Assembly (NCBI GenBank): GCA_965214785.1
Contig: OZ243975.1
Span: forward strand, 132,914 to 196,913
Source of the DNA: Arenicellales bacterium
Lineage (GTDB): Bacteria; Pseudomonadota; Gammaproteobacteria; Arenicellales; JAJDZL01
Direction of reading: 5' to 3'
DNA: 64,000 nucleotides
Part shown: positions 15,827 through 38,752 of the stretch, in pieces
How positions within the stretch are numbered: position 1 is the first letter of the stretch
Layout of the letters: each line of letters starts with the position of its first letter
Notes under the pieces: model-generated
What the model was told of the DNA's origin: nothing
Database searches by the model: none
What the model saw: only the letters and a program-made list of their open reading frames with translations
Translations under genes and position numbers: made by a program

Positions 15827-15863
15827 TTTCTTGCTCCTGACATAATTTCAAATTCAAGTTTGT

Positions 15864-20452: not shown

Positions 20453-21667
20453 TTGCATATGGAAGACATCATTGGAATTCCGGTTTTGGCGGCTTTTTTT
20501 ATTGCTGCTGTAATCATGGGAGTGGTAATCAGCCGTACCAACTTCTGCACCATGGGTGCAGTGTCTGACTGGGTCAATCTCGGCGATTTTGGCAGACTTG
20601 GGGCATGGATGCTTGCGGTTGTCGTAGCCATGCTTGCGGTAGCGTTTATGGAATTAACGGCACTGGTCAACCTCGATGGAGCCAGACCGCCATACCGTTC
20701 ATCTTCTTTTGCCTGGCTTAGGTATATATTTGGCGGAATTCTGTTCGGAGTTGGAATGACATTGGCCGGTGGTTGTGCGAGCAAGAATCTGGTTCGACTT
20801 GGCGGCGGCAGCATCAAGTCTTTGGTCACCCTTGGATTTACCGCAATCTTCGCTTATCTGATGACTAAAACAGTTTTTTATGAAATTGCTTTTTACAACT
20901 GGATGCAGCCATTGGCGTTCGAGCTCAACGATGTCAACGTCAGTTCACAGGATTTCGGATCGCTGCTTGCAGCGTTTTTCAGTTCAATTGACGCCGCGGT
21001 CATCCGTGTGGTCATTGCGCTGGTCGCTTCGGCTGCGGTAATCTGGTTTGTGGTTCGCACACGGGGAATTCGAAAGAATTTAGCCAATGTAGCAGCAGGC
21101 ATCGTTATTGGAATATGTGTAGCGCTAGCGTGGTATATGTCGGCCGGGCCGACTGGGGTGCAATGGATTGAGGCTGCACAATGGGCTGACACACCTCCGG
21201 TCGGAGTCGGCCCGCAATCGTATACATTTATCAATCCATTAGGTGAGTATGTAAGTTTGGCAATCGAATCGGGTGGATTGACGGTACTGCTTACAGTTGG
21301 GATGGCAGCGGCTGCAGGATTGGTGGTCGGTTCGCTGATAGACGCGGTCATTACCAGGCAGTTCAAATTTGTGTGGTTTGTGTCAAGCAAGGACTTCATT
21401 GCTAATGCTATTGGCGGAACACTGATGGGAATCGGTGGAGTATTGGCACTTGGCTGTACTATAGGGCAAGGGATTACCGGGTTGTCTACCTTAGCCGCAG
21501 GGTCTTTATTTGCAGTTGTTGCAATCGTTTTCGGCAGTGCTGCAACACTTAAAGTTCAATACTATCTGCTGGTTTACGAAGAAGCGAGCTTTTTCGATGC
21601 TCTGCTCAGCGCACTTGCGGATTTAAGAATCCTCCCGAACAAACTGAGAAAACTTGAAGCTATCTGA
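20453..21667 (+). CDS. yeeE: YeeE/YedE-family sulfur-compound (thiosulfate-type) transporter
   Basis: 404-aa polytopic protein with the three family Cys motifs (TNFCTMGA, LAGGCASKN, LALGCTIGQG). TTG at 20453; the first ATG is at 20459. Confidence 0.8.
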   Translation: MHMEDIIGIPVLAAFFIAAVIMGVVISRTNFCTMGAVSDWVNLGDFGRLGAWMLAVVVAMLAVAFMELTALVNLDGARPPYRSSSFAWLRYIFGGILFGVGMTLAGGCASKNLVRLGGGSIKSLVTLGFTAIFAYLMTKTVFYEIAFYNWMQPLAFELNDVNVSSQDFGSLLAAFFSSIDAAVIRVVIALVASAAVIWFVVRTRGIRKNLANVAAGIVIGICVALAWYMSAGPTGVQWIEAAQWADTPPVGVGPQSYTFINPLGEYVSLAIESGGLTVLLTVGMAAAAGLVVGSLIDAVITRQFKFVWFVSSKDFIANAIGGTLMGIGGVLALGCTIGQGITGLSTLAAGSLFAVVAIVFGSAATLKVQYYLLVYEEASFFDALLSALADLRILPNKLRKLEAI

Positions 21668-21684
21668 TTCCAACAACAGAGGTA

Positions 21685-22125
21685 ATGAAAATGGCGAAGC
21701 ACTTAGACTGGCTGCCCGAAGACAGGGTATATGACGGCAGTTCCTACCTGTGGGTAAAGGAGAAGTCCGAAGATGGAAGGCTGCGGATCGGAATTGGCTT
21801 GCCAACAGTTGAATCTTTTGGTGAGTTGGCATATCTGAGTCTTTTAGAACCTGGTCAAAAAGTCACCCGCGGTGAGTCTTTGGGTTCTATGGAGGCGGCG
21901 AAGATGACAGGAGAGATTGTCAGTCCGGTGAGCGGCACAATCGTTGAGCGTAACGAACCGGTTTTGGACGAACCGCGCAAAGTCAGCGACGATCCATACA
22001 ACGCTGGCTGGCTGGTTGCGCTAGAGCCTGAGTCTTGGGAGTCAGAGCGCGCACAACTGCATAGCTCAGCGAGTCTTTACGAGCTGCTGCCACAAGAGTT
22101 GCGCGGGCGTCAGGAAAACCACTGA
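21685..22125 (+). CDS. lbpA2: Lipoate-binding protein LbpA (GcvH-like), copy 2
   Basis: 146 aa. Lipoyl-lysine context SMEAAKMTGE. RBS AGAGG. Starts 17 nt after yeeE. Confidence 0.8.
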   Translation: MKMAKHLDWLPEDRVYDGSSYLWVKEKSEDGRLRIGIGLPTVESFGELAYLSLLEPGQKVTRGESLGSMEAAKMTGEIVSPVSGTIVERNEPVLDEPRKVSDDPYNAGWLVALEPESWESERAQLHSSASLYELLPQELRGRQENH

Positions 22126-22134
22126 GTAAATTGC

Positions 22135-23247
22135 GTGAACTGGCGCTTTTTGCAAGACGAAGCGGTTAGCCACGTTACCGGCCTGGCTGTTGACGATGCG
22201 CTGGCGCAACTTGCTGCGCACGACAATCCAGTCACGCTGAGACTCTACACTTACAGTCCCTGTGCACTGATTGGCAGGTTTCAGCATCTGGCGGATGAAA
22301 TTAACCTTGATTTTTGTCATCGCTTGAATATACCGGTCAATCGCAGACCCACCGGCGGCGGTGCAATTATTATGGGACCTGACCAACTGGGTGTCGCGTT
22401 GGTGGTTCCGCCTGATCACTCGCTCGGTGCCGGCTCGGTACGTCAGGTGATGGAACGATGCGCTGGTGGTGTTATCGAAGGGTTATCCATACTTGGAATC
22501 GATTCGCAGTTGTTTGGCAAAAATGATCTTGTTGTTGCAGGACGCAAGATAGCGGGACTTGGATTGTACCGGGCGAAGTGTGGCGCAGTACTGTTTCATG
22601 CATCGGTGCTGCTGGATTTGGATATTCCATACATGCTTGATGTGCTGCGAACTGCGTTTGACAGAACGTCGCAGAAATATTTGACCCGCATCAATGATCG
22701 GTTATGCACGGTACGGACACAAGCGGGCAATGAAAAACAGATGCATGAACTCAAAGAGGCTATAAAGAAGGGATATCAAGATCGATTTGCAGTTAAGTTT
22801 ACATCCGCGGTACCACAAGTTGAGGAACAAGCGCTGTCTGAGAAGCTTGAAAAACAGAAGTATTCCACTCAACAATGGATATTCAACAGTCCATCACGGA
22901 TTCGCGATTCCGTAGGCGGAAGCCAGTTGCGTACTGCCGGAGGCATGCTTGAGGTTCGTGCAATCGTAGCAGGGCAAACGATCAAGTCGGTTTGTCTGGG
23001 CGGAGATTTTATTGCTTCAGACAATGCAGTGCTTGATCTGGAAGGGGCGCTTCGATGGCATATCCGTGACGACAAACTTATTCGAAAGACAGTATTTGAC
23101 AGTGTTGCCAGATATGCGAATTGTTGGCATCAAATCTCACCGAGCGATGTCGCAAACGCGGTAACCGCTGCGGTTGAACAGAGTTTCCCGCAAAACTTGC
23201 AAACACAAACCGGAGCTTGCTTTGCACGGGGGGCTGAAAGTGGCTGA
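22135..23247 (+). CDS. slpl(AB): Lipoate-protein ligase of the sLpl(AB) type
   Basis: BPL/LplA catalytic motifs RRPTGGGAIIMG and AGRKIAGLG, plus a C-terminal accessory domain in one 370-aa chain. Sits between lbpA2 and two radical-SAM genes. Confidence 0.8.
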   Translation: MNWRFLQDEAVSHVTGLAVDDALAQLAAHDNPVTLRLYTYSPCALIGRFQHLADEINLDFCHRLNIPVNRRPTGGGAIIMGPDQLGVALVVPPDHSLGAGSVRQVMERCAGGVIEGLSILGIDSQLFGKNDLVVAGRKIAGLGLYRAKCGAVLFHASVLLDLDIPYMLDVLRTAFDRTSQKYLTRINDRLCTVRTQAGNEKQMHELKEAIKKGYQDRFAVKFTSAVPQVEEQALSEKLEKQKYSTQQWIFNSPSRIRDSVGGSQLRTAGGMLEVRAIVAGQTIKSVCLGGDFIASDNAVLDLEGALRWHIRDDKLIRKTVFDSVARYANCWHQISPSDVANAVTAAVEQSFPQNLQTQTGACFARGAESG

Positions 23248-24220
23248 GACTGTATTTTTTGAAGGCTTTTCATCGCAGCCTGATCGGGTTGATTTGGCTG
23301 CTATGGCGTTAAGACGACAGCATTTCGATGACAGTGTCATTTTTCATGCACCGGGTCTGAAGCGCTACGAAACCTCAGAATACAGCGATCACAATGCAGC
23401 TGAATTTGTCGCTGTAAGTGTAACGGGCGAGGCTTGTGCACTGAGCTGCGAACACTGTAAAACGGGTGTGCTAAAGGGCATGGCGGACTTAACGGCGAGT
23501 AGCGAATCGCTGTATGAGATGTGCTCGCGACTTTATGATCAGGGAGCAAAAGGTGTTCTGATTTCCGGTGGCAGTGACCGAAACGGAAGAGTGCCTTTGA
23601 AAAAGCACATTCCCGACATGATAAGAATTAGTTCGCAATTGAAAATGAAGATTCGCGTTCATCCTGGTCTGCCGGATGAAGAAACTTGTGCCGGGCTTGG
23701 CGATATTGGCATCGACGGTGCGATGATTGATGTAATTGGTGATGAACGAACAATTCGCGAGGTGTATCACTTACAGTGCGGCGTTGGAGAGTATGAAGCG
23801 GTGCTGGAGCGCCTTGAGCGTTACGATGTGCCTTGCGTACCCCATATAGTTATCGGTCTTCACTGGGGCATGATGATGGGAGAGCAGAGCGCACTGGAGA
23901 TGATTTCCCGTTATCGTCTCAAGGTATTGGTTCTTGTCATTTTGATGCCGCTGTCGGGAACACCGATGGTAGCTGTCAAGCCGCCTTCGATCGAGGAGGT
24001 TTCGGAATTTTTCAGCCTGGCGCGCAAAACTGTGCCTGACAAGCCTGTCATGCTCGGCTGCGCACGGCCTTTAGGCAGAATGAAAGAAAAGGTTGATCGT
24101 GCTGCGATCAATGCCGGTTTAAACGGCATTGCATATCCTGCAGAAGGAATTGTCGAATATGCGAAACAATGTGGACTGAAACCGCAATTCATCAATGCGT
24201 GTTGCGGGGTCAATTGGTAA
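23240..24220 (+). CDS. Radical-SAM lipoyl-synthase-like protein (LipS1/LipS2 type; which one is not assignable by eye)
   Basis: CxxxCxxC motif CALSCEHC. Preferred start is the GTG at 23240, which overlaps the ligase stop (GTGGCTGA). The track ORF opens at 23174. Confidence 0.75.
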   Translation: MAETVFFEGFSSQPDRVDLAAMALRRQHFDDSVIFHAPGLKRYETSEYSDHNAAEFVAVSVTGEACALSCEHCKTGVLKGMADLTASSESLYEMCSRLYDQGAKGVLISGGSDRNGRVPLKKHIPDMIRISSQLKMKIRVHPGLPDEETCAGLGDIGIDGAMIDVIGDERTIREVYHLQCGVGEYEAVLERLERYDVPCVPHIVIGLHWGMMMGEQSALEMISRYRLKVLVLVILMPLSGTPMVAVKPPSIEEVSEFFSLARKTVPDKPVMLGCARPLGRMKEKVDRAAINAGLNGIAYPAEGIVEYAKQCGLKPQFINACCGVNW

Positions 24221-24249
24221 GTTAAACATTCAAAGCGAACAGGAACGAT

Positions 24250-25347
24250 ATGGCGACAACTGGAATTCCAACAAAACTTCAGGAACAATATTTTCAAATC
24301 AGCCCCGACTATGTGCGGATTTCTATAGCCGCGGCGATTGAATTAGGGTTGTCTCCCGGGCAGATTAACGGATGCAGTTGCAACTGCATAAACCTGCTGC
24401 AGAACTATCCGCATGGATGTGCGGCGAATTGTTCTTATTGCGGCTTAGCGCGTGAAAGGCCTGGATTGGCAGAAGACAACAGTTTTATCCGCGTAGACTG
24501 GCCCTTGTTTGAAACAGATCTGGTTGCCGAAAAAATCGCAGAAAAAGAAAAAAGAGACACTGTCGGGCGGGTGTGTATTGCGCAGGTTCAAGATCACAGA
24601 GCCACCGCTGACCTGATTGAAATGTCGTCGCGCGTAAGAAAAGCTGCAGCTGACGTTCCGATATCTGCGTTGGTGACAGCAACACTTTTGGATGAAGGCA
24701 GTTTACATCAGATCAAGGCATCCGGGGTTGACATTATCGGAGTTGGATTAGATGCAGTGTCGGAAGAAGTATTTTTGCGTACCCGGGGGAAATTGGCAAA
24801 AGGTCCGCATCAGTGGGACCAGCATTGGGAAATTGTTCGCTTGGCGCGTCGGATTTACGGACCGATGAAGGTTAATTGTCACTTGATCGTTGGGCTCGGG
24901 GAGACCGACCAAGAAATGTTCGATATGATTTATCAGTTAAAGTCTGAGCAGATTGCCGGTTACCTGTTTTCATTCAATCCGGAACCCGGTACGGCGATGC
25001 AGGATGTTCCGCGGGCTGCGCTGGTGCGATGGCGTCGGATTCAGTATGTCAAACACCTCATTGAAGAGTATGATTTGCCGGCAGATGCGCTTGAATACAG
25101 CAAAACCGGGGATTTAATTCGAGTTGATGCGCCGGACAATATGGCATCTGCTGCAATGAGCAGCGGCTTGGCATTTATGACAAATGGATGTCCGGACAGG
25201 GCAGGGGTGATGGCCTGCAACCGGCCGTATGGTTCTTACCGTCCGGGCGAGGAGTTCCGGGATTATCCTTTTCTGCCTGACCGGGACGAATTAGACAAGA
25301 TTGCTCAACAAACTAAAGTCAAGGCACTTCACGGCGAATTTCACTAA
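24250..25347 (+). CDS. Radical-SAM lipoyl-synthase-like protein (LipS1/LipS2 type, second member)
   Basis: CxxxCxxC motif CAANCSYC. Biotin-synthase-like 365-aa protein. Confidence 0.75.
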   Translation: MATTGIPTKLQEQYFQISPDYVRISIAAAIELGLSPGQINGCSCNCINLLQNYPHGCAANCSYCGLARERPGLAEDNSFIRVDWPLFETDLVAEKIAEKEKRDTVGRVCIAQVQDHRATADLIEMSSRVRKAAADVPISALVTATLLDEGSLHQIKASGVDIIGVGLDAVSEEVFLRTRGKLAKGPHQWDQHWEIVRLARRIYGPMKVNCHLIVGLGETDQEMFDMIYQLKSEQIAGYLFSFNPEPGTAMQDVPRAALVRWRRIQYVKHLIEEYDLPADALEYSKTGDLIRVDAPDNMASAAMSSGLAFMTNGCPDRAGVMACNRPYGSYRPGEEFRDYPFLPDRDELDKIAQQTKVKALHGEFH

Positions 25348-25739: not shown

Positions 25740-27215
25740 CATCAGCTAAGGCGTACAGAAAAATGGTGTGTATGAGCGGTGGATAACAATTTAACCTGTC
25801 CAAATCAACGAGCGTGATTGGGAGCGTAGAAAAACAGATTTGAATTGGTAGTCGTTCGGAACACCATAATGGCGAGTTGTTCAAACCGCTTGCGGCGGTT
25901 CTACAGGTAAAGCCCTGAGGTAATCTCCGAGAGAAGGGATCGGAATCTTATATTGGTCCGGTATTTTTAGTGCCGGGGCTAGCAATCCTGCATGCAACGC
26001 ATTGGTCAAAAAATCGTCAATACTCTCTGCTTTTCTTTTTCGCGCAGATTCCGTTAGCAAATCAATCTCATCATATGACAAGGTATCCACAAAATCCTCT
26101 TTCTTTTTAGCCGCTGCCAAGGCCAATTTCTTATACACCCATGCTCGGCTGGAACCGGCTTTAACCCTTCCTGCATAGTAGTCGTTTTTGCGTTCAACTC
26201 CCTCGTCGAGTGCCTGTTCAAGCAAATGCCTTTCCATCCGGCCTTCGTTAGCGCGTAACACTTCACCTGCAGTCACTCCAATCCGATTGATGTGTTGTGG
26301 CCACCCCTGGGACAAGTCCGCTAAAGCATCTGCCCAGAAATCCTTTTCTTCCTCAGCTCCGATATAGTAAGCATCCAACATGCGTCGAAAGGAACCGGCT
26401 GCAACCTCCGTTTCAAGAGATTCCAGATTTACAACTCTTTTAGCGGCATATCTCGACAAGCCAAACTGGCGCAATACCTGTTCAGTATCGCTTAGACCAA
26501 AGAATGCTGCAACCAGAGGAATCTCCTTGGGTGGATCGTGCAAACAGCCCATCACGCCTTTAGTAGTACCCGCTTCCGGCGTATTTTGGGCTTCATCCAC
26601 AAAGACCACCAGATGAAACTTTTCAAGCAAAGGCGAAGCTTCGCGGAAAATGCGGGCCGACCTCATCGTCATTTCTGAAAGGCTGGCAGTCTGTGATCTG
26701 CCACTTACAGAATTTCCCGCTACGCCAACTTCCCATTCTGACAATTCTCCGTACAATTTTCCGCCCAAGTCCAGCAATTTCCTGAGATTACGGGCAATTG
26801 CATCTGGCGCTATCTTTGAAAGTCGATCGCTTTCTTTATTCGCTGCATCAATCAAGTCCATCACGACTTCGGCAGGTGATATCAGGGTGTCTGGTTTGAT
26901 AGATACAGCAACCCAGGGATCATCCGGTGTTGAATGACATCTGACAGCTTCCACGCATTCTTGCATCAGCGCAGTTTTTCCGACACCAGGTGCACCTTGG
27001 AACACCATTGTGCCACCACCTACTTGCCCTGCACGGAGGCTTTCTACCGCATTGCGAAAGATATCGTACTCAGCATCCCGGCCATGAAAAAAAGCCTCAC
27101 GACCGACTTCGGCGCGATCGGTTTGATCCCGCCACACTTCCTCTGGCAGAGGTTTTACTGGCAGTGGCTTGGGGAAAGGTCTTTGATGCATGCGGGTAAT
27201 TTTATTCCAATCAGG
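25740..27215 (-). repeat. Direct repeat copy A (ATPase gene plus ~150 bp 3' flank and ~25 bp 5' flank)
   Basis: Aligns without indels across the whole 436-codon gene to 47032..48342 at a constant offset of 21,151 bp. Weaker, indel-containing similarity continues 3' of the stop. Confidence 0.85.
25881..27191 (-). CDS. P-loop NTPase, AAA_16/AAA_22 (STAND/ORC-like) type, copy 1
   Basis: Pre-Walker pattern FFHGRDAEYDIFRNAVESL. Walker A GAPGVGKT (26972-26999). Walker B LVVFVDEAQ (~26587-26612). 436 aa with no added effector or repeat domain. Confidence 0.8.
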   Translation of the reverse strand: MHQRPFPKPLPVKPLPEEVWRDQTDRAEVGREAFFHGRDAEYDIFRNAVESLRAGQVGGGTMVFQGAPGVGKTALMQECVEAVRCHSTPDDPWVAVSIKPDTLISPAEVVMDLIDAANKESDRLSKIAPDAIARNLRKLLDLGGKLYGELSEWEVGVAGNSVSGRSQTASLSEMTMRSARIFREASPLLEKFHLVVFVDEAQNTPEAGTTKGVMGCLHDPPKEIPLVAAFFGLSDTEQVLRQFGLSRYAAKRVVNLESLETEVAAGSFRRMLDAYYIGAEEEKDFWADALADLSQGWPQHINRIGVTAGEVLRANEGRMERHLLEQALDEGVERKNDYYAGRVKAGSSRAWVYKKLALAAAKKKEDFVDTLSYDEIDLLTESARKRKAESIDDFLTNALHAGLLAPALKIPDQYKIPIPSLGDYLRALPVEPPQAV

Positions 27216-27714: not shown

Positions 27715-30225
27715 TTGTGCTCAGCCTTATCCGCAGCACTTGCAGTTTCGCTTGCAGAAGCTGATACCACACAGCAGACGATTGAACAGGCCATTGACTA
27801 TCCGGAAGGTGCTGTAGTTAGAATCACTTCTGTCGCACCCAAAGATGCGCTGTGGACGCTTGAGGGTGAAGACGCAGAAAGATTTTTGATCGAAGGTGGC
27901 GCACTTCGATTTTCCGATGATGGCTTTCGAGTCGCCCGACCCGATTTTGAAATCCCCCGTGATGCAGACGGGGACAATGTCTACCGCGTTCGCGTATCGC
28001 GCATCACCGATGATGCAGACAAAAAGCGAAGCTATGATTTCGTAATCAGGGTCACCGACCGCGATGAACCAGGTCGCATCAAGACATCCACCGTTCACCC
28101 AGTCAGCGGTGAAACTGTTCAGGTTCATCTTACAGACCCCGATGACATCGAAGGAGAGATCCGATGGCGCTGGCAGCGTTCGGCGGAACCTGACCAATGG
28201 ATTTCCATTGATGCCGTCAATTCTTCCTCCTACACCCCAAACGCAGGCGATACAGGTCACTTTATTCGCGTCATCGCTGAGTACCACGACCGTCTAGGCG
28301 GTCCCCGTACGGTAAAGGCTCTTTTGCCTGAAACCGTAATTGGCCCAAAGCTACTGTCTTTAGATGCCAAAACCGACCATGGCGGAAAAACACTTCATCC
28401 GCTGTTTGACCCTGTCATCACACACTACGGCATCGAATGTGACGAGCGCGATGTGTTGAGTGTGAACTTCACTTTACCACAAGATATCAAAGCATCAGTC
28501 AACGGCATACAGCCTCGCCCTGGGCGCAAGACAGGAGCAGCGGCAGCTGTAGAAGAAACCAGCGATACAAAGATTGTCTTATCTCAAGCTGACGGTGCGA
28601 GTACGACCTACACCATACACTGTCTGCCACAGCAGCTTGCCAAGATACGAACCAAACCTGATCCGAACAATCCGCTTGGCGTACTGCTTGGGGTAACAGC
28701 AGGGCCCTTTGCAGCGGTGATTGATGAAAACGGTGTCTCGCGCGCGCATATCAAGGCAAGCCGCGGCAATGCAGGTTTCTTTTTTCGACATTTTGGTTCA
28801 GGGCACAACATGCGCTGGGCGCATGTTGAAACATCAGCAGAAAAAAAACAGCACTGGCGAGTACTTGATCGAAACTTCAATACGTTGCGCACTGTTGCCA
28901 CCGCTTCGCCTTTGACCACGACGGGGCGTCACGACTTTCGGCTGCTTGAGGACGGTTCTTCGATGCTGATGACTTATGAACCTCAGTTTCGGGACTTCAG
29001 TTATCTTTCTTTTGGTGACCTGGACGGTGAGCCGTGGGGAAGTGCTGTAGAAACCGAAGATTCAGCTATTCAGTGGCTCGGTCCTGACGGCAAAGTGCGC
29101 TGGACCTGGAATTCCTGGGGCCGAATACCACTTGAAGACTGTTCACAGCACCGTTTTCCCCGGGACTGGGCGCATGTCAATTCAATTGAATGGACAGATC
29201 AAGGCGTACTGGCATCTTTTCGCGGCTGCTCTTCAATTTTGATGATTGACCCTAAAGCTCCATCAGGAGACGAGATCGTCTGGCGTATTGGCAGAACCAA
29301 TTTGCAGGCAGATCAGTGGAAAGAGCGTGATCTTAGTCCGCCTCCGCTTGCGATTGTCGGTGATCCGGAAGGAGAGTTCTGCGGTCAGCACGCGGCAATG
29401 CTGCTGGCGCCACCTGCAGGATTGAAGCTTTCGCGCTTACTTTTGTTTGATAACGGTGTTGCTTGTGTAACCGACCCTCATACAGGCGAGTCACTTGGAC
29501 GCCAGTCTGACCGTTACAGCAGAGTTGCAGAATACGCAATTGATGTTGCAAACGAAGAAGCGATCTTTGTACGCGACCATGCTCTTGGCAATAGCCGAGA
29601 CCGCCTTGGCTTTGCAGGCGGTCATGTAGAACCTTTATCTGACGGCAAGTGGCTTGTGAGCTGGGGCGGAGGCGGGCCTAAAAACGATGTCGAAAGCGGC
29701 GGTCTTGAGATTAATGATTTGGTGACGGTAGTTGATTCAAACAAAGGACAAGAAACCTTTTCCATCCCGGTTGGCGATGATGACAAAGCGACTGCCGGAT
29801 TTCGGGTACTGCCTGTTGCATTGGATGTGTTGATGCGCCCGCAAGCGCAATTGCATGCATTTTTTCCAGACCCGCTGCCACAATCCCACGACGGAGCAGG
29901 CGAGACGTTTTCGATTCTTGTGTCTTTTTCTCGGCCCATATCAGACTTTGGTGTAGATACCCCGTCCATTGAGATTACCGGCGGTGAACTTACCGACGTA
30001 CGACCTTTCACTTCATTCGGGCGACCTGCAAACAGTTATGAGATTTTCATTAAACCTGCTGCAAACGATCCGGTGTGCCTGTCGTTTCGGACAAAAATCA
30101 GCTGCACTGAAAAAGAAAGCATATGCAGTGCTGACGGGACTGAGCTCACCGAAGCGCCAGAACCTTTTTTGATTCCAGGCAGTGACTTATCCGACGGTCA
30201 GTCGCACACAAACAAGTGCACATGA
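27715..30225 (+). CDS. Secreted cadherin-like + arylsulfotransferase (ASST)-like beta-propeller protein
   Basis: N-terminal cadherin-like segment (DADGDNVYRVRVSRITDD...VIRVTDRDEPG). ASST-type motif DWAHVNS at 29164-29184. The TTG start leaves only a truncated signal peptide (MCSALSAALAVSLAEA). The frame is open back to 27589. Confidence 0.65.
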   Translation: MCSALSAALAVSLAEADTTQQTIEQAIDYPEGAVVRITSVAPKDALWTLEGEDAERFLIEGGALRFSDDGFRVARPDFEIPRDADGDNVYRVRVSRITDDADKKRSYDFVIRVTDRDEPGRIKTSTVHPVSGETVQVHLTDPDDIEGEIRWRWQRSAEPDQWISIDAVNSSSYTPNAGDTGHFIRVIAEYHDRLGGPRTVKALLPETVIGPKLLSLDAKTDHGGKTLHPLFDPVITHYGIECDERDVLSVNFTLPQDIKASVNGIQPRPGRKTGAAAAVEETSDTKIVLSQADGASTTYTIHCLPQQLAKIRTKPDPNNPLGVLLGVTAGPFAAVIDENGVSRAHIKASRGNAGFFFRHFGSGHNMRWAHVETSAEKKQHWRVLDRNFNTLRTVATASPLTTTGRHDFRLLEDGSSMLMTYEPQFRDFSYLSFGDLDGEPWGSAVETEDSAIQWLGPDGKVRWTWNSWGRIPLEDCSQHRFPRDWAHVNSIEWTDQGVLASFRGCSSILMIDPKAPSGDEIVWRIGRTNLQADQWKERDLSPPPLAIVGDPEGEFCGQHAAMLLAPPAGLKLSRLLLFDNGVACVTDPHTGESLGRQSDRYSRVAEYAIDVANEEAIFVRDHALGNSRDRLGFAGGHVEPLSDGKWLVSWGGGGPKNDVESGGLEINDLVTVVDSNKGQETFSIPVGDDDKATAGFRVLPVALDVLMRPQAQLHAFFPDPLPQSHDGAGETFSILVSFSRPISDFGVDTPSIEITGGELTDVRPFTSFGRPANSYEIFIKPAANDPVCLSFRTKISCTEKESICSADGTELTEAPEPFLIPGSDLSDGQSHTNKCT

Positions 30226-30292: not shown

Positions 30293-33200
30293 ATGAACGG
30301 TTCAAGCAAAGATCGAACTGACAATCCGGTTATTGAAATTAGGCTCTGGTCTTGGTTTAAGCAGTGTAGTCGATTGAATCGTTGCGAGGCTGGCGCTGCA
30401 TCGCAATATGCTGGACGCTTATTTCGAAATGTGATGACCGGATTTATAGCACTGCTGGTAGCAGTCGGGCTTTCTGCCGGGGCACAGGCGCAAACGCCGA
30501 CGCTGCCCGCTGTCGCACCGACGGAAATCTACGAAGGTGAGACGCTTGAGTTCACACTGTCCGTGACAAGGAATTTCGGTCTTTTTCCTTGGACAGATGG
30601 CTACAATTATTTAGAACCTGATTCGGGAGGCACGGCAACCGAGGGAAACTCTAGTGACTGGTATCTAGCTGACAGCGGCGGAAACCGAATAGCGCAGTAT
30701 AGCCAATCGAACAGCACTCCAAGGCTAGTGACTACAGGCGACGGTACTCAGTACTACGAAATTGACTTTCGTCTGCACGCGAGAGCAGACAGCGCCACCG
30801 AGAGCGATGAAACGATCCGTTTGTATTTGCATGATGAGTATGATTCCCACGATAACGATTATCTCACAATCACCCTGAAGGACGGCACGCGCCCGGTGAT
30901 GGTCACCGACGGCGTAACCCTTTCCGCATCCGCCCTTACCCTGACCGAACTTGGCTCATCCAGCGATGTCGAGAAGACCTACACCGTAGTGCTCGACACC
31001 GATCCGGGCGCCGATGTGACCTTCACGGCGACGGTGCCGGCGGCAAACAGCTCCGAGGTCGAGATCAAGACCGGCAGCGGCGCTTTCGGCAGCAGCGCCA
31101 CGCTCACTTTCACCCATGGCAATACCGGCAACTGGAGTTCGGCGCAGACGGTGACGGTCAGGGCGCTGAACGATGCCGATGCAACCAACACCACCTCCTT
31201 CAACCTCACCCACAGCCTGACCGTGGCCAGCGGTCCCTACGCAAGCATCACACCGGACCCGGTCGCGGTGTCGGTGACCGACGCCGGCCACGGGGTCACC
31301 GTGTCCAAGGCCAGCGTTTCGCTGGCGGCGGACGGCACCGTGGACTACACGATCCAGCTCAAAAGCCAGCCCGGCGGCTCGGTGGTCATCACGCCGACCT
31401 CGAGCGCCACGGCGAGGGCCACGGTGTCGGGCGCCCTGACTTTTACGAACTCGAACTGGTCCACGCCGCAGACGGTGACCGTGACTGGCGCTGGCACCGG
31501 CTCGGCCACGATCAGCCACATGGTGACGACCGGCACCACGGACTACCCGACCAGTACGACGATCGCCTCGGTGACGGCGACGGTGAACGCGGCAGCCAAC
31601 AATACGCCGACGGTGGCCAACATGATCCCCGACCAGACGGCGACAGTGGGCACGGTGCTGAGCTACGCCTTCCCGGCCAACACCTTCAATGATGCCGACA
31701 ACGACAACCTGACCTACAGCGCAACCAAATCCGACGACACTGCCCTGCCGACCTGGCTGACCTTCACCTCGGGCACCCGCACCTTCTCGGGTACGCCGCA
31801 GGCGGCCGATGTCGGCACGCTGTCGGTCAAGGTGACGGCGAATGACGGCAACAGCGGCACCGTCAGCGACACGTTCGACATCGTCGTGTCCCACCCCGCC
31901 CGGAACCTCGATATTCAGGTGGCCGACGCCTATGAAGGCGAGAACATCGTCGTCACCCTGACCCTGAGCCGGGCGCCGGGCAATGTGGTCGCGCGCCAGC
32001 GGACCTTCAGGGTCAGCACAGACGTTCCGTCAGCTTCCAACGTCAACATCTGCATCTCATCCTATGGCTGCGAGGCCGGCAGCACGCCCGCCGCGGCCGC
32101 AGACTTCTTCACGGTCACCGGAACGGACGTCGTGTTCGGCCCCAGCGACACCGTGAAGTCCGTCTCCCTCCCGACCGTCACCGATTCCGCGAGCGAGGGG
32201 GTGGAAGTGGCGTCAATCGATATCTTGTACAGTCCCGGAACGGGCGACCTGGGCATCTTCACCCATGGCAGCACGCAGGTCACCGGGCGGAATGGGTTCA
32301 TCGCTGCTCCGAATCTTCAAGAAACCAACATAGAAGTCGGCTCATACGGCCAGATCCGGGACGGCGCCCGCCCGGTACCGATCACCATCACCGAGGCCGG
32401 AGGGACCACGGTCAGCGAGGACGGCAGCACCACCACGGACAGCTACACCGTGGTGCTGGACAGCCAGCCCAGAGCCAGTGTGACGGTGTCGGCCACCGCC
32501 GGCACGGGCGCGCAGGTGCAGGGCCCCGGCGGCACAGCGGGCGGGGCGGCAACCCTCACCTTCACCACCACGAACTGGAACCAGGCGCAGACGATCACCG
32601 TCACCGGCGTCGATGACGACATCGACAATACAGGCGATGCGCGCACCGTGACCATCGCCCACGCGGCGAGCTCCACCGATTCCACCTACACCATCGCCAA
32701 CGCGGGCGAAGTGAGCGTCACCGTCACCGACGACGACACGGCGGGTCTGGTTTTTAGCCCGGATCCCGTCTCGGTGAACGAAGGCGAAACCGGCAGCTAC
32801 ACGGTGGCGCTTGCCAGCGAGCCGTCGGGGAACGTGACGGTCACCATCACCGGGCAGGGCGGCAGCACCGACCTGACACTGGACACCGACAGCGTCATGG
32901 CGGGCGATCAGGACACGCTCACCTTCACGACCTCGAACTGGAGCGCGGCGCAGACCGTAGAGCTCACCGCGGCAGAGGACAACGACAGCAACAACGATTC
33001 GATCACCCTCGCCCATGTGCCCACGGGCGGCAGCTATGGCAACGCGCAGAACAAGAACCTCGCGGTCACCATCACGGACGACGAGGGGCTGACGCCGGTG
33101 ATCTCGATGTCGCTTCCGAGCGGCGAGAGCGAGATGTACACGGATGACGACGAGCTGATCCGCCCGGAAAGCGAGGGCGGTACCGGCGTGCTGTTCACCG

Positions 33201-36200
33201 TGAGTGCCGACCGGCCGCTGCCGAGCACGCTGACGGTGTGCGTGCGGGTGACCGAGAGCGGCGGCGACCGGGTGACCTCGGGCAATGAGGGCATCAAGAC
33301 GGTGAGCCTGCCCAGCGAGACCCTCACCACCAGTTCGAACACCCACAGTCTCACCTGGACAAACACGAACACGGACGACCAGGACAGCAGCGTGACCGTC
33401 GAGATTGTGGCGCCGAACACGGCGAGCTGCTCGGCAACCAATGGCAGCTACACGGTCTCGTCCAGCGACGCTTCCGGCAAGCTGCTCATCAAGGACGACG
33501 AGCCGACCACGGTCGAGCTCACGAGTTCCGACAACACCATGATCGAGGGCATTGCCGCGCACACGGCGACGCTCACGGTCTCGCTGTCCCGCCAGCTCTA
33601 CGCCGGCGAGGTCATCGTCGTGCCGTTGACGTTGGCGTCGAGCACCGGAGCGCGGCTGCCGGGGAGCACGAACAGCGGCACCGCCAACCACGACTTCACG
33701 GTCGCGGCCGCGGCTGCGTCCGGGCATAGCGGCGTGACGATCGCGGACGAGGAGACGGCCACGCCGAGCCTGACCTTCACCGGCCACGGGACCAACACGG
33801 TGCAGACGGCGACGGTGACGCTTACCCCGGTGGCGGGCCGCAGTGACGGGGACAGCACGCCTGAGACGATCACCGCGACGCTGGCGACGGACAGCGTGCT
33901 CGGCGCGTCCGGCACGAGCACGACGGTGAGCGGCGGCGCGGCGCGGCATGCGTCGAACTACATGGTGAGCCTGACGTTGGCCGAGCCCGGCACGCCGGGC
34001 ATCACCCTGTCGCCGCCCGGCTCGCTGCGCCTGCTGGAGACCGGCACGACGAGCTACACGGTAGTGCTCGACGCGGCGCCGACGCATGATGTGACGGTCA
34101 CTGTTACCAAGAGCCAGGCGGGTTTAACGGGAACGGGACGCACACCCGACCAAAATGCTGCGGACCCCAGCTCGAATCAACTCACCTTCACGACTACGAA
34201 CTGGAGCCAGCCGCAGACGGTGACCGTGACGGGGGCGGACGAGTCCGGCAGGCACCGGAACCGCGCGATGCGTTTAATCCATTCGGCAGGATCGACCGAC
34301 TCCCGCTACACTGGCGTCAACACCAACATCCGGGTCGACGTGGACGACGCGCCTGAGCTCGAGGCGTGGGATCTGGCGGTAATGAACGCCAATGACTACG
34401 TTGCCAAACAGCGCCCGAACACCGTCAAGGCGACGCGGGGGTTCAGGTATTTCCAGAATGATATGACGCCAATTTACCCGCTGCGTTACCAATTGCGTCT
34501 GTCGAACCGCCCGGCGAGCGGCGAAACGGTGACGGTGACGGCAACATCGAGCGACATCAGCAAGTTCGGTCTGTCCCTGACCTCGGGAGGTACGCCGCAG
34601 GCATCGCTGACGGTGACCTTCGAGGACCGCCCGGCCGACCGGGTATGCTTCAATGGGGGTCACAGCTCTTTGTTTGACGTTAACACGTCGAACCCGGACG
34701 CGTCCTGGGCGTGCTATCGCCAGATCTGGGTCATCAGCACGCAGCAATATTCGACCTTCGAGAAGGGTTGTGCCAACATTACCCACACGGCCTCGGGTGG
34801 CGGCCTGCGCAGCACGGCCATCGGGACGATCCGCGCGCACGCCGTTGCCGGCACCGCCTTTGCCCCCTACAGCGCCCCGGGTAGCGATTGTCCCCTTATT
34901 ACCGAGGAACTCAGCACCGGCCGCTCGGCACCCGCTAAGGCCGCCCCCACACCCACCGAGGTGGTGGCCAATGTTCAGGTGACGGCGGTGGACGACACCA
35001 GCGCCAGCGTCACCTGGGATGCGGTAGAGCACGCCACCTCCTATGACGTGTCGTGGAGTGCTGAAAGCAGCGACGCTCTGAACGCTTCCGCTGGTGACTT
35101 GCCAGGCATAACGGGTACCACGGCCACCATCGACCACGGCGCCTCGGTACCGATGACGCTTACGGTTACAGTAACACCGGAATATGTCGATGAAAACGGT
35201 GACACCGTACAATTGGATGATCTTGGTACAACAGCGACATTGGAAGTCGGCCCTGGAAGCGATGCCCTTCGTACTGAAGCACAAAGCCCGGATACACAAT
35301 CGACGCAATCGGCTGTGACAACAGTGCAGCGTTTGGAGGCAGCTAAGCTGTGCGTGTCAGACACGTTGATGGAAAAGACAAAGCGCTACTACGAACTTCA
35401 CCGAAACAAGGCACCGGGTTATGGTGCCAACTGGTTTGCTATTTTGACTGCGTTTGGCGAACGTACGCAAGCCGACTGGACAGCTGACAGTCGTAGCATA
35501 GAGCCGATGAGCAGCGCTTCTTCGCGCGAGCGCGAGTCGAAGTGGAGCGGCTGGAAGCCTTTTACCGAAGCATTGGAATGTGTAGAGGCAGAACTTGCAA
35601 AGGTACAAGCTGCCGCACAAGCCGAAGCACAAGCGGCAGAACAAGAGGCAGAACAAGCCGATAAAGTCGCACCACAAGTGCTACCGGATGATCTGACAGT
35701 GACATTGGAATCCGCTGATTCAGCATCCGGCGTAACAGAAGGTACGCAAGTGTCGTTTACGCTAAAGACAGACAGTGCACCGACAAAAGAGCTTGAAGTG
35801 ACGGTAACGGTCACTCAGACAGGCAGCGTTGCAGATACTTCAGCCACAGGCGAGCGTACGGTGACCATCCCGGTCGGTAAGACAGAAGCTGCTTTTACAG
35901 TTGCAACAATAGCTGATGACACCGATGAGGTACAAGGTTCTCTAACGGCAACCGTATCAGACGGTACAGGCTATAAGACAGAGGATCAAAGTGCAAGTGT
36001 AACGGTAGCTGTAAAAGATGATGATGCAACATCCATCACGCTCAGTGCCAGTGCAGATGATCTGACAGAGATTGTTTCTGAAGGATCAAGTGAAAAGACA
36101 CTGACGGTAACCTTGGGGCGTACACTGATCGAAGGTGAAAGCATCGAAGTGCCGCTTGTCTTTACCGGCACCGCATCGCTTGGCAGTGACTATACGCTTG

Positions 36201-38752
36201 AAGCGCCAAAGACACTACCAACCGGGGTGAGCTATGCCAACCTTGGAGGCAGCGATCCTGCCAAGGCGCCGACAGTGACTTTTGCAGGTTCTACAGGTGG
36301 TGTATCTTCACTGACAGCAACACTGACGCTGACCACAGTTGCCGACAGCGAAGCTGAAGATGATAAAGAGACCGTTACAGTCAAATTGGGTACGCCGGCT
36401 ACAACAGGATTAGGCGGCGGTGTTTCGACTTCTGGAAACGTACAGTTCTCCATCTTGGAGCCTGTACCTGAGATTTCTATTACAGCGAAGACACAATCAG
36501 TTGCAGAAGGTACAGATGCGGTTTTTACTGTAAAAGCTAGCCGATCTTCAGGATCTGACCTTACAGTTAATCTTACAGTCTCAGAATCGGACGGCAGTGA
36601 CTTTGTTGCCGCAGATAAAGAAGGTACAGCTACAGTGACCATCACCAAAGGGGAGACGGAAGCTGACTTTTCAGTACCAACTGTAAACGATTCTGTCAAT
36701 GAGCCCGATGGGTCGGTAACCGTAACGGTTGTCGAAGACGGTGAAAAAGGACAGTATTACTCTCAAGCCTCATCACCCGATGATTCAGCTTCTATAAAAA
36801 TCACCGACAACGATTCAGTTGCGACGGGACCGGAATTCTCTGTAGCTGATGAAACCGCCAATGAGAATGTGGGTTTAATGTACTTTACAGTTCGCTTGGA
36901 TCGTTCATTGAGTCAAAAAGTACAAGTGACATTCAACGTACGCGAATCGAGTCCTGTCTCAGCCCGTATGGGACAAGATTACTTTTGGTGGTGGGAGGAC
37001 GGTCTTGCGCTTACCTTTTATCCGGGTCAGACCCAAAAGAAGATGTGGGTATATGTCTATAACGACAATCACGACGAAGACCCTGAGACCTTTGAGGTGG
37101 TGTTATCGAATCCGACAGGGGCTACAGCCATCGGTGATGGTGTTGCGGTTGGTACCATTGTGAACTCTGATCCGATGCCAGCTGCGTGGTTGTCGAGGTT
37201 TGGGCGCACCGCTGCGCAGCAAGCCTTAGACGGCATTGCCGCTCGCATTGAATCTTCAAGAACTTCAGGTATTGAAGGCTCTATAGCCGGACAGGCACTT
37301 GTGTTTGATCCAAAATCCAAATCACTTGTCACAAGCGGTGATGGACAAAGCGGAGCACAAAACAGTACTGCAAACAGTCTTACTGAAACATCATCGCTTG
37401 CAAGCTTTGATGTGCAGCATGCATTTGGAGATACAAAAGACGCATCAGGCAATACCGATACCTTCGGTTATCAGTCGTATTCTATGACTGAGAAAGAAGC
37501 GCTTTTGGCAAGCTCTTTCACGGCAACCGAAGATAAAGACACAAGCGGGGGTTCTTTAGCCTTTTGGGGTAAAGCTTCACAATCGAACTTCGATGGTACT
37601 GAAGGCACATTTTCGTTGGACGGAGAGGCGACTACTTTGATGAGCGGTACCGATTATGCACGAGGCGAGTGGCTTTTAGGCATCGCATTGATGCAATCCA
37701 AAGGCAAAGGCGGTTATCGCGATACCGATACGGTAAAGCAAGCGGATCTTCCAGAATGTAAAGAAAAAGACAATGACACTTTATCTGAAGATGCAAGAAA
37801 GGTTTTATGCAACGGTGCGATCCTAAAAGGCAGCGGTGATGTTGAAGCGACTTTGACTGCAGCTGTACCCTATGCATCGTTTGATGCGACTGAGCGTCTT
37901 AAGGTATGGGGTGCATTGGGTTTGGGTACAGGCGATGTGACGTTAAAGCCCAATGTCGGCGGCAAGTTAAGTTCCGATATCTCCTGGACCATGGCAGCAG
38001 GTGGCCTGCGCGGGGATGTGATCTCACAAGGAAGTGGTTTTTCCCTTGCTGTCAAATCCGATGTGCTGTGGGCGCGTACCACTTCAGATAAGACCAATCA
38101 GCTGGCGGCATCGGATTCGACAGTGACGCGTCTTCGCTTTGGTCTTGAAGGGTCATGGAACATGGCATTGGACGGCAATGGCACTCTGACACCGAAACTT
38201 GAAGCCGGCATGCGCCATGACGGCGGTGATGCGGAGAGCGGATTCGGTGTAGAGTTAGGAGGAAGTGTTGTATGGACAGATCCAACACTTGGCATGTCAT
38301 TGGATGTATCGGGCAGAACGCTTGTCACCCACGACGATGATGATCTAAAAGACTCAGGCTTTGCAGCATCGCTGATCTGGGATCCGAAACCTACAACCGC
38401 ACGCGGAGCGTCGTTTACTGTGAACTTGGACCGCGGCGCTCAGGCCAAAGGCGGCATGGATGCGTTATTTACCCCGCAGACCATAGACAGGCGTAGCGGT
38501 ACAACTGCAACTTCCGGTCGCTGGCGGGCGCAAGCTGCCTATGGCGTAGCGGCTCCGGGTGGTCGTTATGTCTCAAGTCCCTATATGGGTCTGGGTCTGG
38601 GTGCAGGTACGCGCGAATACACATTGGGTTGGAAGATCACGCCTGAGCCCAATGCACCGGATGTGTCTTTTGGGCTTCGCACCACGCGTACTGAATCCGA
38701 TTCGGCTTCTGCGCATCATGATGTGCGGTTCGAGGCGATTGCCCGCTGGTAG
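30293..38752 (+). CDS. Giant (2,819 aa) autotransporter adhesin with a Calx-beta / cadherin-like / FN3 multi-domain passenger
   Basis: - RBS AAAGGAG 7 nt before the ATG.
- ~66-aa extended signal peptide ending AGAQA/QT.
- Dystroglycan-type cadherin-like domain at ~31597-31891.
- Five NW(S/N)xxQT(V/I) modules.
- FN3 at ~34950-35210.
- Canonical Calx-beta units at ~35690-37150.
- Autotransporter linker and beta-barrel from ~37170 (AAWLSRFGRTAAQQALDGI ... RFEAIARW-stop). Confidence 0.85.
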   Translation: MNGSSKDRTDNPVIEIRLWSWFKQCSRLNRCEAGAASQYAGRLFRNVMTGFIALLVAVGLSAGAQAQTPTLPAVAPTEIYEGETLEFTLSVTRNFGLFPWTDGYNYLEPDSGGTATEGNSSDWYLADSGGNRIAQYSQSNSTPRLVTTGDGTQYYEIDFRLHARADSATESDETIRLYLHDEYDSHDNDYLTITLKDGTRPVMVTDGVTLSASALTLTELGSSSDVEKTYTVVLDTDPGADVTFTATVPAANSSEVEIKTGSGAFGSSATLTFTHGNTGNWSSAQTVTVRALNDADATNTTSFNLTHSLTVASGPYASITPDPVAVSVTDAGHGVTVSKASVSLAADGTVDYTIQLKSQPGGSVVITPTSSATARATVSGALTFTNSNWSTPQTVTVTGAGTGSATISHMVTTGTTDYPTSTTIASVTATVNAAANNTPTVANMIPDQTATVGTVLSYAFPANTFNDADNDNLTYSATKSDDTALPTWLTFTSGTRTFSGTPQAADVGTLSVKVTANDGNSGTVSDTFDIVVSHPARNLDIQVADAYEGENIVVTLTLSRAPGNVVARQRTFRVSTDVPSASNVNICISSYGCEAGSTPAAAADFFTVTGTDVVFGPSDTVKSVSLPTVTDSASEGVEVASIDILYSPGTGDLGIFTHGSTQVTGRNGFIAAPNLQETNIEVGSYGQIRDGARPVPITITEAGGTTVSEDGSTTTDSYTVVLDSQPRASVTVSATAGTGAQVQGPGGTAGGAATLTFTTTNWNQAQTITVTGVDDDIDNTGDARTVTIAHAASSTDSTYTIANAGEVSVTVTDDDTAGLVFSPDPVSVNEGETGSYTVALASEPSGNVTVTITGQGGSTDLTLDTDSVMAGDQDTLTFTTSNWSAAQTVELTAAEDNDSNNDSITLAHVPTGGSYGNAQNKNLAVTITDDEGLTPVISMSLPSGESEMYTDDDELIRPESEGGTGVLFTVSADRPLPSTLTVCVRVTESGGDRVTSGNEGIKTVSLPSETLTTSSNTHSLTWTNTNTDDQDSSVTVEIVAPNTASCSATNGSYTVSSSDASGKLLIKDDEPTTVELTSSDNTMIEGIAAHTATLTVSLSRQLYAGEVIVVPLTLASSTGARLPGSTNSGTANHDFTVAAAAASGHSGVTIADEETATPSLTFTGHGTNTVQTATVTLTPVAGRSDGDSTPETITATLATDSVLGASGTSTTVSGGAARHASNYMVSLTLAEPGTPGITLSPPGSLRLLETGTTSYTVVLDAAPTHDVTVTVTKSQAGLTGTGRTPDQNAADPSSNQLTFTTTNWSQPQTVTVTGADESGRHRNRAMRLIHSAGSTDSRYTGVNTNIRVDVDDAPELEAWDLAVMNANDYVAKQRPNTVKATRGFRYFQNDMTPIYPLRYQLRLSNRPASGETVTVTATSSDISKFGLSLTSGGTPQASLTVTFEDRPADRVCFNGGHSSLFDVNTSNPDASWACYRQIWVISTQQYSTFEKGCANITHTASGGGLRSTAIGTIRAHAVAGTAFAPYSAPGSDCPLITEELSTGRSAPAKAAPTPTEVVANVQVTAVDDTSASVTWDAVEHATSYDVSWSAESSDALNASAGDLPGITGTTATIDHGASVPMTLTVTVTPEYVDENGDTVQLDDLGTTATLEVGPGSDALRTEAQSPDTQSTQSAVTTVQRLEAAKLCVSDTLMEKTKRYYELHRNKAPGYGANWFAILTAFGERTQADWTADSRSIEPMSSASSRERESKWSGWKPFTEALECVEAELAKVQAAAQAEAQAAEQEAEQADKVAPQVLPDDLTVTLESADSASGVTEGTQVSFTLKTDSAPTKELEVTVTVTQTGSVADTSATGERTVTIPVGKTEAAFTVATIADDTDEVQGSLTATVSDGTGYKTEDQSASVTVAVKDDDATSITLSASADDLTEIVSEGSSEKTLTVTLGRTLIEGESIEVPLVFTGTASLGSDYTLEAPKTLPTGVSYANLGGSDPAKAPTVTFAGSTGGVSSLTATLTLTTVADSEAEDDKETVTVKLGTPATTGLGGGVSTSGNVQFSILEPVPEISITAKTQSVAEGTDAVFTVKASRSSGSDLTVNLTVSESDGSDFVAADKEGTATVTITKGETEADFSVPTVNDSVNEPDGSVTVTVVEDGEKGQYYSQASSPDDSASIKITDNDSVATGPEFSVADETANENVGLMYFTVRLDRSLSQKVQVTFNVRESSPVSARMGQDYFWWWEDGLALTFYPGQTQKKMWVYVYNDNHDEDPETFEVVLSNPTGATAIGDGVAVGTIVNSDPMPAAWLSRFGRTAAQQALDGIAARIESSRTSGIEGSIAGQALVFDPKSKSLVTSGDGQSGAQNSTANSLTETSSLASFDVQHAFGDTKDASGNTDTFGYQSYSMTEKEALLASSFTATEDKDTSGGSLAFWGKASQSNFDGTEGTFSLDGEATTLMSGTDYARGEWLLGIALMQSKGKGGYRDTDTVKQADLPECKEKDNDTLSEDARKVLCNGAILKGSGDVEATLTAAVPYASFDATERLKVWGALGLGTGDVTLKPNVGGKLSSDISWTMAAGGLRGDVISQGSGFSLAVKSDVLWARTTSDKTNQLAASDSTVTRLRFGLEGSWNMALDGNGTLTPKLEAGMRHDGGDAESGFGVELGGSVVWTDPTLGMSLDVSGRTLVTHDDDDLKDSGFAASLIWDPKPTTARGASFTVNLDRGAQAKGGMDALFTPQTIDRRSGTTATSGRWRAQAAYGVAAPGGRYVSSPYMGLGLGAGTREYTLGWKITPEPNAPDVSFGLRTTRTESDSASAHHDVRFEAIARW
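30880..35160 (+). other. High-GC, high-GC3 cassette internal to the adhesin ORF
   Basis: Line 31021-31080 is 41/60 G+C (68%), against 25/60 (42%) at 36481-36540 in the same ORF. Long antisense ORFs exist only here. Boundaries were estimated by eye to within roughly 50 nt. Confidence 0.8.

Follow-up and report, generated by a model that had tools for sequence, protein, structure and literature searches.

Why should a single gene change its codon usage twice without losing its reading frame? The question is raised by an adhesin-like surface-protein gene on a 64,000-nt stretch of contig OZ243975.1 (this whole stretch is called the window below). The gene is one uninterrupted open reading frame (ORF) of 2819 aa in one frame, and carries in its middle a block of about 4.3 kb that is rich in guanine and cytosine (GC). 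The evidence set out below makes it very probable that this block (aa 193-1622) was overwritten by recombination with orthologs of co-resident high-GC bacteria, namely Alphaproteobacteria, Binatia and others. Coordinates of all features are collected in Table 1.

Codon usage along the adhesin gene

An initial annotation of this DNA had described a continuous ORF whose composition changes stepwise at positions 30880 and 35160, and the profile of GC content at third codon positions (GC3) does show this step. A two-change-point maximum-likelihood fit placed the changes at nt 30869 (support 30860-30878) and 35159 (support 35042-35165), with GC3 values of 0.490, 0.859 and 0.436 in the three successive segments, and the three-segment model described the ORF better than a uniform GC3 (twice the difference in log-likelihood, 2*dlnL = 565). 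GC contents at the first and second codon positions are flat along the gene, and because these positions are unchanged the shift in composition is purely synonymous. Inside the block only 5% of third positions are A and 9% are T, and in windows of 40 codons GC3 is mostly ~0.8-0.98 in its larger part, block A. In all 18 other large ORFs of the window GC3 lies between 0.44 and 0.53, and in 1-kb bins the GC content of the block is 0.64-0.68 versus ~0.47 elsewhere in the window; two single lines of sequence quoted in the initial annotation (31021-31080 with 68% GC and 36481-36540 with 42% GC) gave the same values on recomputation. The source organism is a ~47% GC bacterium, probably a gammaproteobacterium, and the genes of the window suggest sulfur oxidation. 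The five NW...QT motifs ascribed to the block are found inside it, at nt 31130, 31454, 32573, 32936 and 34199, and so is the supposed cadherin-like domain, here a He_PIG domain at aa 439-533; the Calx-beta domain (aa 2182-2279) lies outside, as had been claimed. As in a mosaic gene, the compositional break is limited to one block of an intact reading frame.

Relatives of the block in high-GC genomes

Close relatives of the block came from two sources. A search with the cassette protein led to contigs of one European Nucleotide Archive assembly, ERZ25070917, and a scan of species-representative genomes returned relatives almost exclusively in metagenome-assembled genomes (MAGs) of sponge symbionts. 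Over the block, nucleotide identity to the window is 85-87% for the high-GC contigs L002 and L003 and 83-92% for chromosome-level MAGs (L004 and L006, labelled Alphaproteobacteria; L005, labelled Binatia; L008, labelled Arenicellales), the GC content being 66-70% in L004, L005 and L006 and ~55% overall in L008. Single tracts of 200 nt reach 94-100% identity to the high-GC orthologs, with a longest exact match of 318 nt (33043-33360, to L003 and L048), and the related contigs and MAGs that carry such tracts are described as 62-72% GC.

A separate comparison of the flanks, as the initial annotation had proposed, shows how different they are. Against the same high-GC loci the remainder of the adhesin gene and the upstream arylsulfotransferase-like gene are 62-74% identical at the nucleotide level (62-70% for the flanks of the block within the gene), and the 5' segment (30293-30866) is homologous to the same domain in L002 and L004 but only 67-78% identical. 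Synonymous divergence (dS) between the window and the high-GC loci is 0.16-0.27 in the block and saturated in the Calx-beta stalk and the barrel-like domain, where the proportion of synonymous sites that differ (pS) is 0.75-0.8. At the protein level the relatives of the cassette are graded, with 91, 84, 81 and 75% identity, and the C-terminal 1181 aa are 96% identical within the window's own lineage and at most 59% identical to the next relatives. The same discordance is seen within a single protein of the Binatia MAG (P0168), which is 92% identical in the smaller part of the block, block B, versus 56% in the C-terminal part. The block is much nearer to genes from distant organisms than its own flanks are, again as in a mosaic gene, and the in-frame acquisition from a high-GC donor that the initial annotation had offered as one explanation is supported.

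Four of the high-GC sequences (L003, L048, L049 and L004) group in a single alphaproteobacterial clade, with 89-93% identity to one another across the whole locus; L002 is a separate high-GC lineage. The locus L007 (CBDCAZ010000001.1, 16091-18063), on a 32-kb contig labelled Candidatus Poribacteria (~65% GC over the part covered), has flanking genes 98% identical to those of L048; this label may reflect mis-binning.

A patchwork that differs between sibling strains

In sliding identity plots and 100-nt nearest-neighbour scans the nearest donor switches along the block (Table 1), and the maximum chi-square breakpoints were equalled in 0 of 500 permutations. Within block B, 34401-34800 is also 90-97% identical to the alphaproteobacterial MAG L006, and identity drops to 84-89% over 34801-35000. 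By these comparisons the cassette is a patchwork from at least three donor lineages that differs among sibling strains. Of the single cassette pictured in the initial annotation, the foreign high-GC character stands and the single origin does not.

The sibling contigs L001 (34x) and L047 (18x) are 99-100% identical to the window in GDH and other neighbouring genes (99.8% and 99.4% for GDH by blastn). The cassette of L001 is the same one, 94.6% identical and with the same GC3 step, while in L047 the slot is occupied by a different cassette, only 70-76% identical to that of the window and with GC3 raised to 0.6-0.9. The right junction is common to all three, down to identical AT-ending variants. 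Block B of the window (34367-34930) has no nucleotide match in L001 or L047, whose own block B is of alphaproteobacterial type (93-94.5% identical to L004 and L003) and whose N-terminal module, also different from that of the window, has low GC3 and is of the type found in L003 and L048. The adhesin gene as a whole is a hotspot of divergence among the siblings, with 94-97% identity even in its native part versus 99-100% in the genes next door. Strains ~99% identical in housekeeping DNA thus differ by module swaps with foreign alleles, and the exchange is both recent and recurrent.

Two observations concern further copies of the gene. In L001 the adhesin is split at 6388/6397, inside block B, into two ORFs (1375 and 1443 aa) in different frames, which is either a pseudogene or split gene or an indel error of the assembly. 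The protein P0121 (1971 aa) has an overall identity of only 79% to the adhesin of the window, rising to 96% in the C-terminal part, and matches the second half of the L001 adhesin at 95%; its contig also carries a GDH (P0360) identical to that of the window, and P0121 represents either a further allele at the locus or a paralog from another place in the genome.

Junctions and the FN3 module

The window and L002, which have the same N-terminal domain, are ~67% identical up to ~30867 (ATCACCCTGAAGGACGGC) and ~95% identical thereafter. In L001 and L047 the left join is at 30904, 37 nt downstream of that in the window, at the start of the first immunoglobulin-like (Ig-like) module. On the right, high-GC-like sequence yields to native AT-ending codons at ~35100-35190 with the same FN3 domain continuing; alignment therefore puts this junction within the 3' third of the FN3-coding segment and not, as first described, at the end of the domain. 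In the alignments protein homology continues across both junctions. Because there is homology on both sides, we are dealing with allelic replacement inside a resident ortholog and not with the insertion of a new domain.

The FN3 module has a median amino acid identity of 89% among 64 homologs, versus 41% for the preceding module, 31% for the following linker and ~60% for stalk and barrel, and its dS is 0.13-0.26 even between Alphaproteobacteria and Binatia. We infer that it acts as a recombination anchor. The initial annotation had instead suggested recombination between the repetitive modules of the gene itself. Identity among these internal repeats is only 60-80% over 50-70 nt, on which ground both repeat-mediated intragenic recombination and repeat-mediated misassembly were rejected; the exchange was between orthologs of different organisms. 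Searches of Joint Genome Institute metagenomes with a 38-mer and a 44-mer for the junctions gave 0 exact matches.

Direction of transfer

The genes adjoining the homologs in the high-GC genomes have a GC3 of 0.75-0.89, and for this reason the block appears native there and foreign here. Substitutions were polarised at sites where five high-GC sequences agree. The ratio of GC->AT to AT->GC changes was 44:11 for the window, 93:12 for L001 and 32:6 for changes common to both, so that substitutions in the low-GC lineage run GC->AT by 4-8 to 1, while three alphaproteobacterial-type control loci were near parity (24:25, 4:7 and 19:15; Fisher p = 0.001 to 3e-7). The block has begun to drift toward the composition of its host, and part of this drift predates the split of the two strains. 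The GC3 step is the footprint of recent foreign DNA that has barely drifted to the AT-rich usage of the host.

Origin of the block and alternative explanations

The replacement probably proceeded as follows. The adhesin gene and the arylsulfotransferase-like gene are long resident in the lineage; their ends have native codon usage and saturated synonymous sites relative to all other lineages. The central part of the adhesin gene would then have been replaced by orthologous DNA from co-resident high-GC bacteria, through recombination anchored on the left at the start of the first Ig-like module (~30867) and on the right at the conserved FN3 module (~35100-35190). This first event may have been homology-facilitated illegitimate recombination. 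Once it had taken place, the block would have been 85-100% identical to the donor pool, making ordinary homologous recombination possible, and further conversion patches of 200-1500 nt from several donors would have led to the present patchwork and its strain-specific alleles. Homologous recombination would be the joining mechanism in this scheme, which also presupposes a route of DNA uptake and, as the probable driver, diversifying or host-adaptive selection.

Several observations weigh against this scheme. With only 67-78% identity to the donors, the left flank is a poor substrate for classical homologous recombination, and the left junction of the window at 30867 is matched by no other contig. 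The continuity of the window across its junctions rests on contig comparison, and all close contigs come from the assembly ERZ25070917. Two further control loci, L048 (17:5) and L002 (64:30), also lean toward GC->AT. No sampled donor is identical over the whole block, and the true donors must therefore be unsampled relatives. Finally, a search for vectors found no relative on viral contigs, and blastn against plasmids gave only 67% matches to He_PIG in Rhizobium plasmids.

The last point bears on a different explanation, which we consider improbable: the modules, though equally foreign, came from a pool of mobile DNA (a phage, gene transfer agent, plasmid or integrative element) that circulates them among all these bacteria, and not directly from the chromosomes of the sampled high-GC symbionts, and their high GC3 reflects the usual hosts of this pool. 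The high-GC loci do adjoin IS66 transposases, integrases, toxin-antitoxin genes and a reverse transcriptase, the stalk sequence is common to Alphaproteobacteria and Binatia at a dS of 0.2, and alphaproteobacterial gene transfer agents package DNA in the ~4.3 kb range, which we take as a lead only. Viral contigs and plasmids, however, yielded nothing beyond the weak He_PIG-domain matches just mentioned, and there are no mobile-element genes beside the adhesin in the window. The junctions lie within homologous coding sequence, as they would with any incoming homologous DNA, so that a vector leaves no trace. Scanning the window for Rfam families and tRNAs gave no match, and hence no tRNA-linked island.

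Replacement by DNA of co-resident bacteria must also be weighed against a chimeric assembly, the second explanation of the initial annotation, in which low-GC and high-GC reads were joined through common adhesin sequence. The gene family is present in many co-assembled organisms, and their FN3 segments, 85-92% identical, would be a plausible site for a mis-join. Yet three low-GC contigs (the window, L001 and L047) have high-GC DNA at this position and share the right junction, and none of their cassettes copies a high-GC contig: the overall identity of the window's block to any such contig does not exceed 87%, where a true chimera would be ~100% identical, and 44 private and 32 shared GC->AT changes have accumulated in it. 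At the left junction there is no near-identical common sequence, the internal repeats are only 60-80% alike, and the contig names suggest that the assembly was made from long reads, which would singly cover 4.3 kb. A chimera is very unlikely on these grounds and can be regarded as effectively excluded.

Hardly credible at all is a local rise of GC3 without transfer (by GC-biased gene conversion among the repeats of a vertically inherited gene, or by codon selection), or an ancient acquisition of the whole gene of which only the ends ameliorated, for although third positions alone differ and the block holds repeated modules, convergence cannot yield tracts 94-100% identical to genes of other classes and phyla with up to 318 exact nt, dS is 0.16-0.27 in the block versus saturation at the ends, the present drift runs GC->AT and not AT->GC, and sibling strains have different alleles.

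Two local sources of variation were also considered and rejected within the window. Silent-copy cassettes of the pilE/pilS kind were dismissed, as blastn and tblastx found no other cassette-like DNA in the 64 kb, and a diversity-generating retroelement was dismissed, as there was no reverse transcriptase gene among the ORFs scanned.

Recurrence in another lineage and relation to known mosaic genes

A similar step is present in a second lineage of lower GC content. In the Arenicellales MAG L008 (OZ220677.1, 9059-15025) the GC3 of a 1988-aa homolog passes from 0.58 to 0.8-0.98 and back to 0.5-0.6, with a genomic background of ~0.61, and one tract of 200 nt matches the genes of Binatia and Alphaproteobacteria at 99% identity. 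Among the high-GC lineages the exchange extends beyond this, as the Binatia and alphaproteobacterial genes have 2.2 kb in common at 92% identity, with a stalk dS of 0.2. It is possible, and we suggest it tentatively, that the adhesin family constitutes a community-wide pool in which lineage-specific anchors are kept and distal modules are swapped at the FN3 joint across classes and phyla in one sponge microbiome. Such a pool would take in the low-GC lineage of the window, Arenicellales, Binatia and at least two alphaproteobacterial lineages. If it exists, host niche and not ancestry would set surface identity, and selection would keep co-existing strains different.

The adhesin is a well-resolved example of a known process, the formation of mosaics by transfer and recombination, and no new mechanism is demonstrated by it. 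Classical mosaic genes are the penicillin-binding protein genes of Streptococcus and Neisseria, with which our gene has in common foreign blocks in a resident ortholog, sharp identity breakpoints, homology across the junctions and discordant identity as evidence. Their donors are congeners of ~5-25% divergence, and the exchange proceeds by natural transformation under antibiotic selection; donor and recipient genomes in our case are far more distant. Among surface proteins, the LapA-type adhesins (PF03160, PF20579) resemble the window protein in its Calx-beta domain and weak LapA matches, its build of multiple Ig-like domains and its very large size. LapA-type adhesins leave the cell by type I secretion and carry RTX repeats at the C-terminus, whereas the window protein ends in a predicted beta-barrel-like domain.

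Closer in kind are the type Va autotransporter adhesin genes fap2, radD and cmpA of Fusobacterium nucleatum, which are mosaic through horizontal gene transfer and recombination between subspecies (PMC10995627). Here too very large adhesin genes are recombination hotspots relative to housekeeping genes, lineages of the same niche contribute to the patchworks, and alleles are strain-specific. The partners there are subspecies of similar GC content, whereas the partners of the window gene are labelled as different classes and phyla and are separated by a gap of ~20 points, and it is because of this gap that a codon-usage step is visible. The window gene also differs in that the exchange is central only, between conserved anchors, and in that its C-terminal barrel is unmatched by the Pfam autotransporter family. 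The ecological setting and the gene class agree with those of Robbins et al. 2021, who reported lateral transfer of cadherin- and fibronectin-III-containing attachment genes among sponge symbionts of different phyla, such transfers being both commoner and more recent inside a single sponge host (PMC8163846). That study scored whole genes with MetaCHIP and did not deal with in-frame replacement of a part, patchwork donors, strain-level alleles or an FN3 joint (PMC8163846).

What sets the present locus apart is the distance and GC contrast between the partners, the exchange bounded by anchors, the alleles at strain level and the recurrence in a second lower-GC lineage. It indicates that gene transfer among very distant bacteria need not involve a whole gene but can rewrite the exposed part and leave the membrane anchor native, and that such exchange can be recent enough to tell apart strains otherwise ~99% identical. 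In a low-GC recipient the event is revealed by codon usage, and the locus, together with its Arenicellales parallel, offers a natural marker for the rate, tract length and direction of DNA flow in sponge microbiomes. The Ig-like and He_PIG modules and the conserved FN3 are candidates for functions in living with a host.

Architecture of the predicted protein

The start codon ATG at 30293 is preceded by AAAGGAG, 7 nt upstream. A candidate signal peptide, judged by eye, is MTGFIALLVAVGLSAGAQA (aa 48-66), so that an N-terminal extension of 47 aa (30293-30433) stands ahead of the signal-peptide-like segment. The strong AAAGGAG at this spacing makes it probable that the extension is translated; certain large secreted proteins have extended signal regions that it calls to mind. 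Besides the He_PIG domain, Pfam gave a weak match to FN3, weak LapA-domain matches in the stalk and the Calx-beta domain (PF03160, E 7e-11), which scored 42.7 bits versus a gathering cut-off of 27, and 55.3 bits on a sub-segment. An NCBIfam scan of the adhesin and its neighbours gave nothing. The linker that follows FN3 (35207-35700; aa 1641-1800) is acidic, rich in Q, A and E, has a conserved Cys and is the least conserved part of the family; it had no nucleotide match beyond the window's own lineage.

The C-terminal domain (aa ~2440-2819, the last ~380 aa) was modelled with AlphaFold2 as ~17 long antiparallel strands, at a predicted local distance difference test (pLDDT) score of 60.6, and the protein terminates in ...RFEAIARW. 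With this model Foldseek returned generic outer-membrane barrels (among them TonB-dependent transporter barrels, OccK porins, EspP and BrkA) at template-modelling scores (TM-scores) of 0.2-0.4. On aa 2337-2819 no Pfam family matched at E <= 1, the autotransporter barrel PF03797 included, and the C-terminal 533 aa had no counterpart in a PDB sequence search. Of the beta-barrel in the initial annotation, a generic outer-membrane barrel can be kept and a match to the Pfam autotransporter family cannot. Assignment to the classical (type Va) autotransporters was likewise not adopted, given the unmatched PF03797 and ~17 predicted strands versus a 12-stranded barrel. The gene product is predicted to be a giant surface protein with an outer-membrane-barrel-like C-terminal domain; it would be anchored in the outer membrane and presumably serves as an adhesin. 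Given this C-terminal anchor, the replaced part (aa 193-1622) would be the membrane-distal, exposed portion.

Table 1. Features of the adhesin gene, nearest relatives along its replaced block, and neighbouring genes in the window
Feature	Coordinates	Strand	Basis	Closest relative	Identity
Surface-protein (adhesin-like) gene	30293-38752	+	ORF, Pfam He_PIG and Calx-beta		
Native-composition 5' segment (GC3 0.49): N-terminal extension, candidate signal peptide, first domain	30293-30866	+	composition, alignment		
Left junction zone	30867-30906	+	alignment; GC3 change point 30869		
Cassette block A, foreign, five Ig-like NW..QT modules and He_PIG	30907-34366	+	identity, GC3		
Tract of block	31001-31300			L002	97-99% (others 54-70%)
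Tract of block	31400-32000			L003, L049, L048	94-98%
Tract of block	32000-32400			L004	81-95% per 100 nt
Tract of block	32400-33600			L003, L048	92-100%
Tract of block	33600-34000			L048	92-97% per 100 nt
Cassette block B, Cys-containing module	34367-34930	+	identity		
Tract of block	34401-34800			Binatia L005 and Arenicellales L008	96-97%
FN3 module, conserved right anchor	34931-35206	+	alignment, family conservation		
Native-composition 3' part (GC3 0.44): linker, LapA/Calx-beta stalk, C-terminal barrel-like domain	35207-38752	+	composition, homology		
Antisense ORFs (n=3), compositional artefacts	30956-31894, 32342-34087, 34274-35308	-	codon-complement register		
Arylsulfotransferase-like gene (PF05935), native composition, upstream of adhesin	27715-30225	+	family match		
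CCG-domain protein	14465-15826				
Sulfur-transport protein	20453-21667				
LplA-like ligase	22135-23247				
LipS2-like radical SAM protein	24250-25347				
Second LplA-like gene	48780-49781				

Antisense reading frames in the block

Three long antisense ORFs of 312, 581 and 344 aa had been noticed in the block and put down to its high GC content. All of them are in exact codon-complement register with the adhesin frame, where antisense stops derive solely from sense TTA, CTA and TCA codons, and these number 0.49 per 100 codons in the block versus 2.6 and 3.8 in the flanks, i.e. they are ~5-8x rarer in the block. A Pfam scan of the three ORFs gave 0 matches. On these three counts we rejected them as genes and agree that they are a by-product of composition. 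For annotation the lesson is that a sharp GC step together with long antisense ORFs in one gene need not signal misassembly.

Neighbouring genes in the window

The arylsulfotransferase-like gene precedes the adhesin gene also in L002, L048 and L049. Most of it (28093-30215) is missing from the sibling contigs L001 and L047. Two paralogous AAA_16 ATPase genes (25881-27191 and 47032-48435, both on the minus strand) are 87% identical over 1311 nt and bracket, in the same orientation, a segment of ~20 kb with the arylsulfotransferase-like, adhesin, GDH, ADH, YHS and AhpC genes; across strains they are 89-97% identical and so more divergent than the genes they enclose. For the GDH the nearest named homolog, at 63%, is from Acidiferrobacterales. 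Gene content suggests an sHdr-type sulfur-oxidation set with lipoate machinery at 14465-25347. A type I polyketide synthase of 2487 aa (50999-58462, minus strand; KS-AT ... ER-like) is of native composition, with a GC3 of 0.48.

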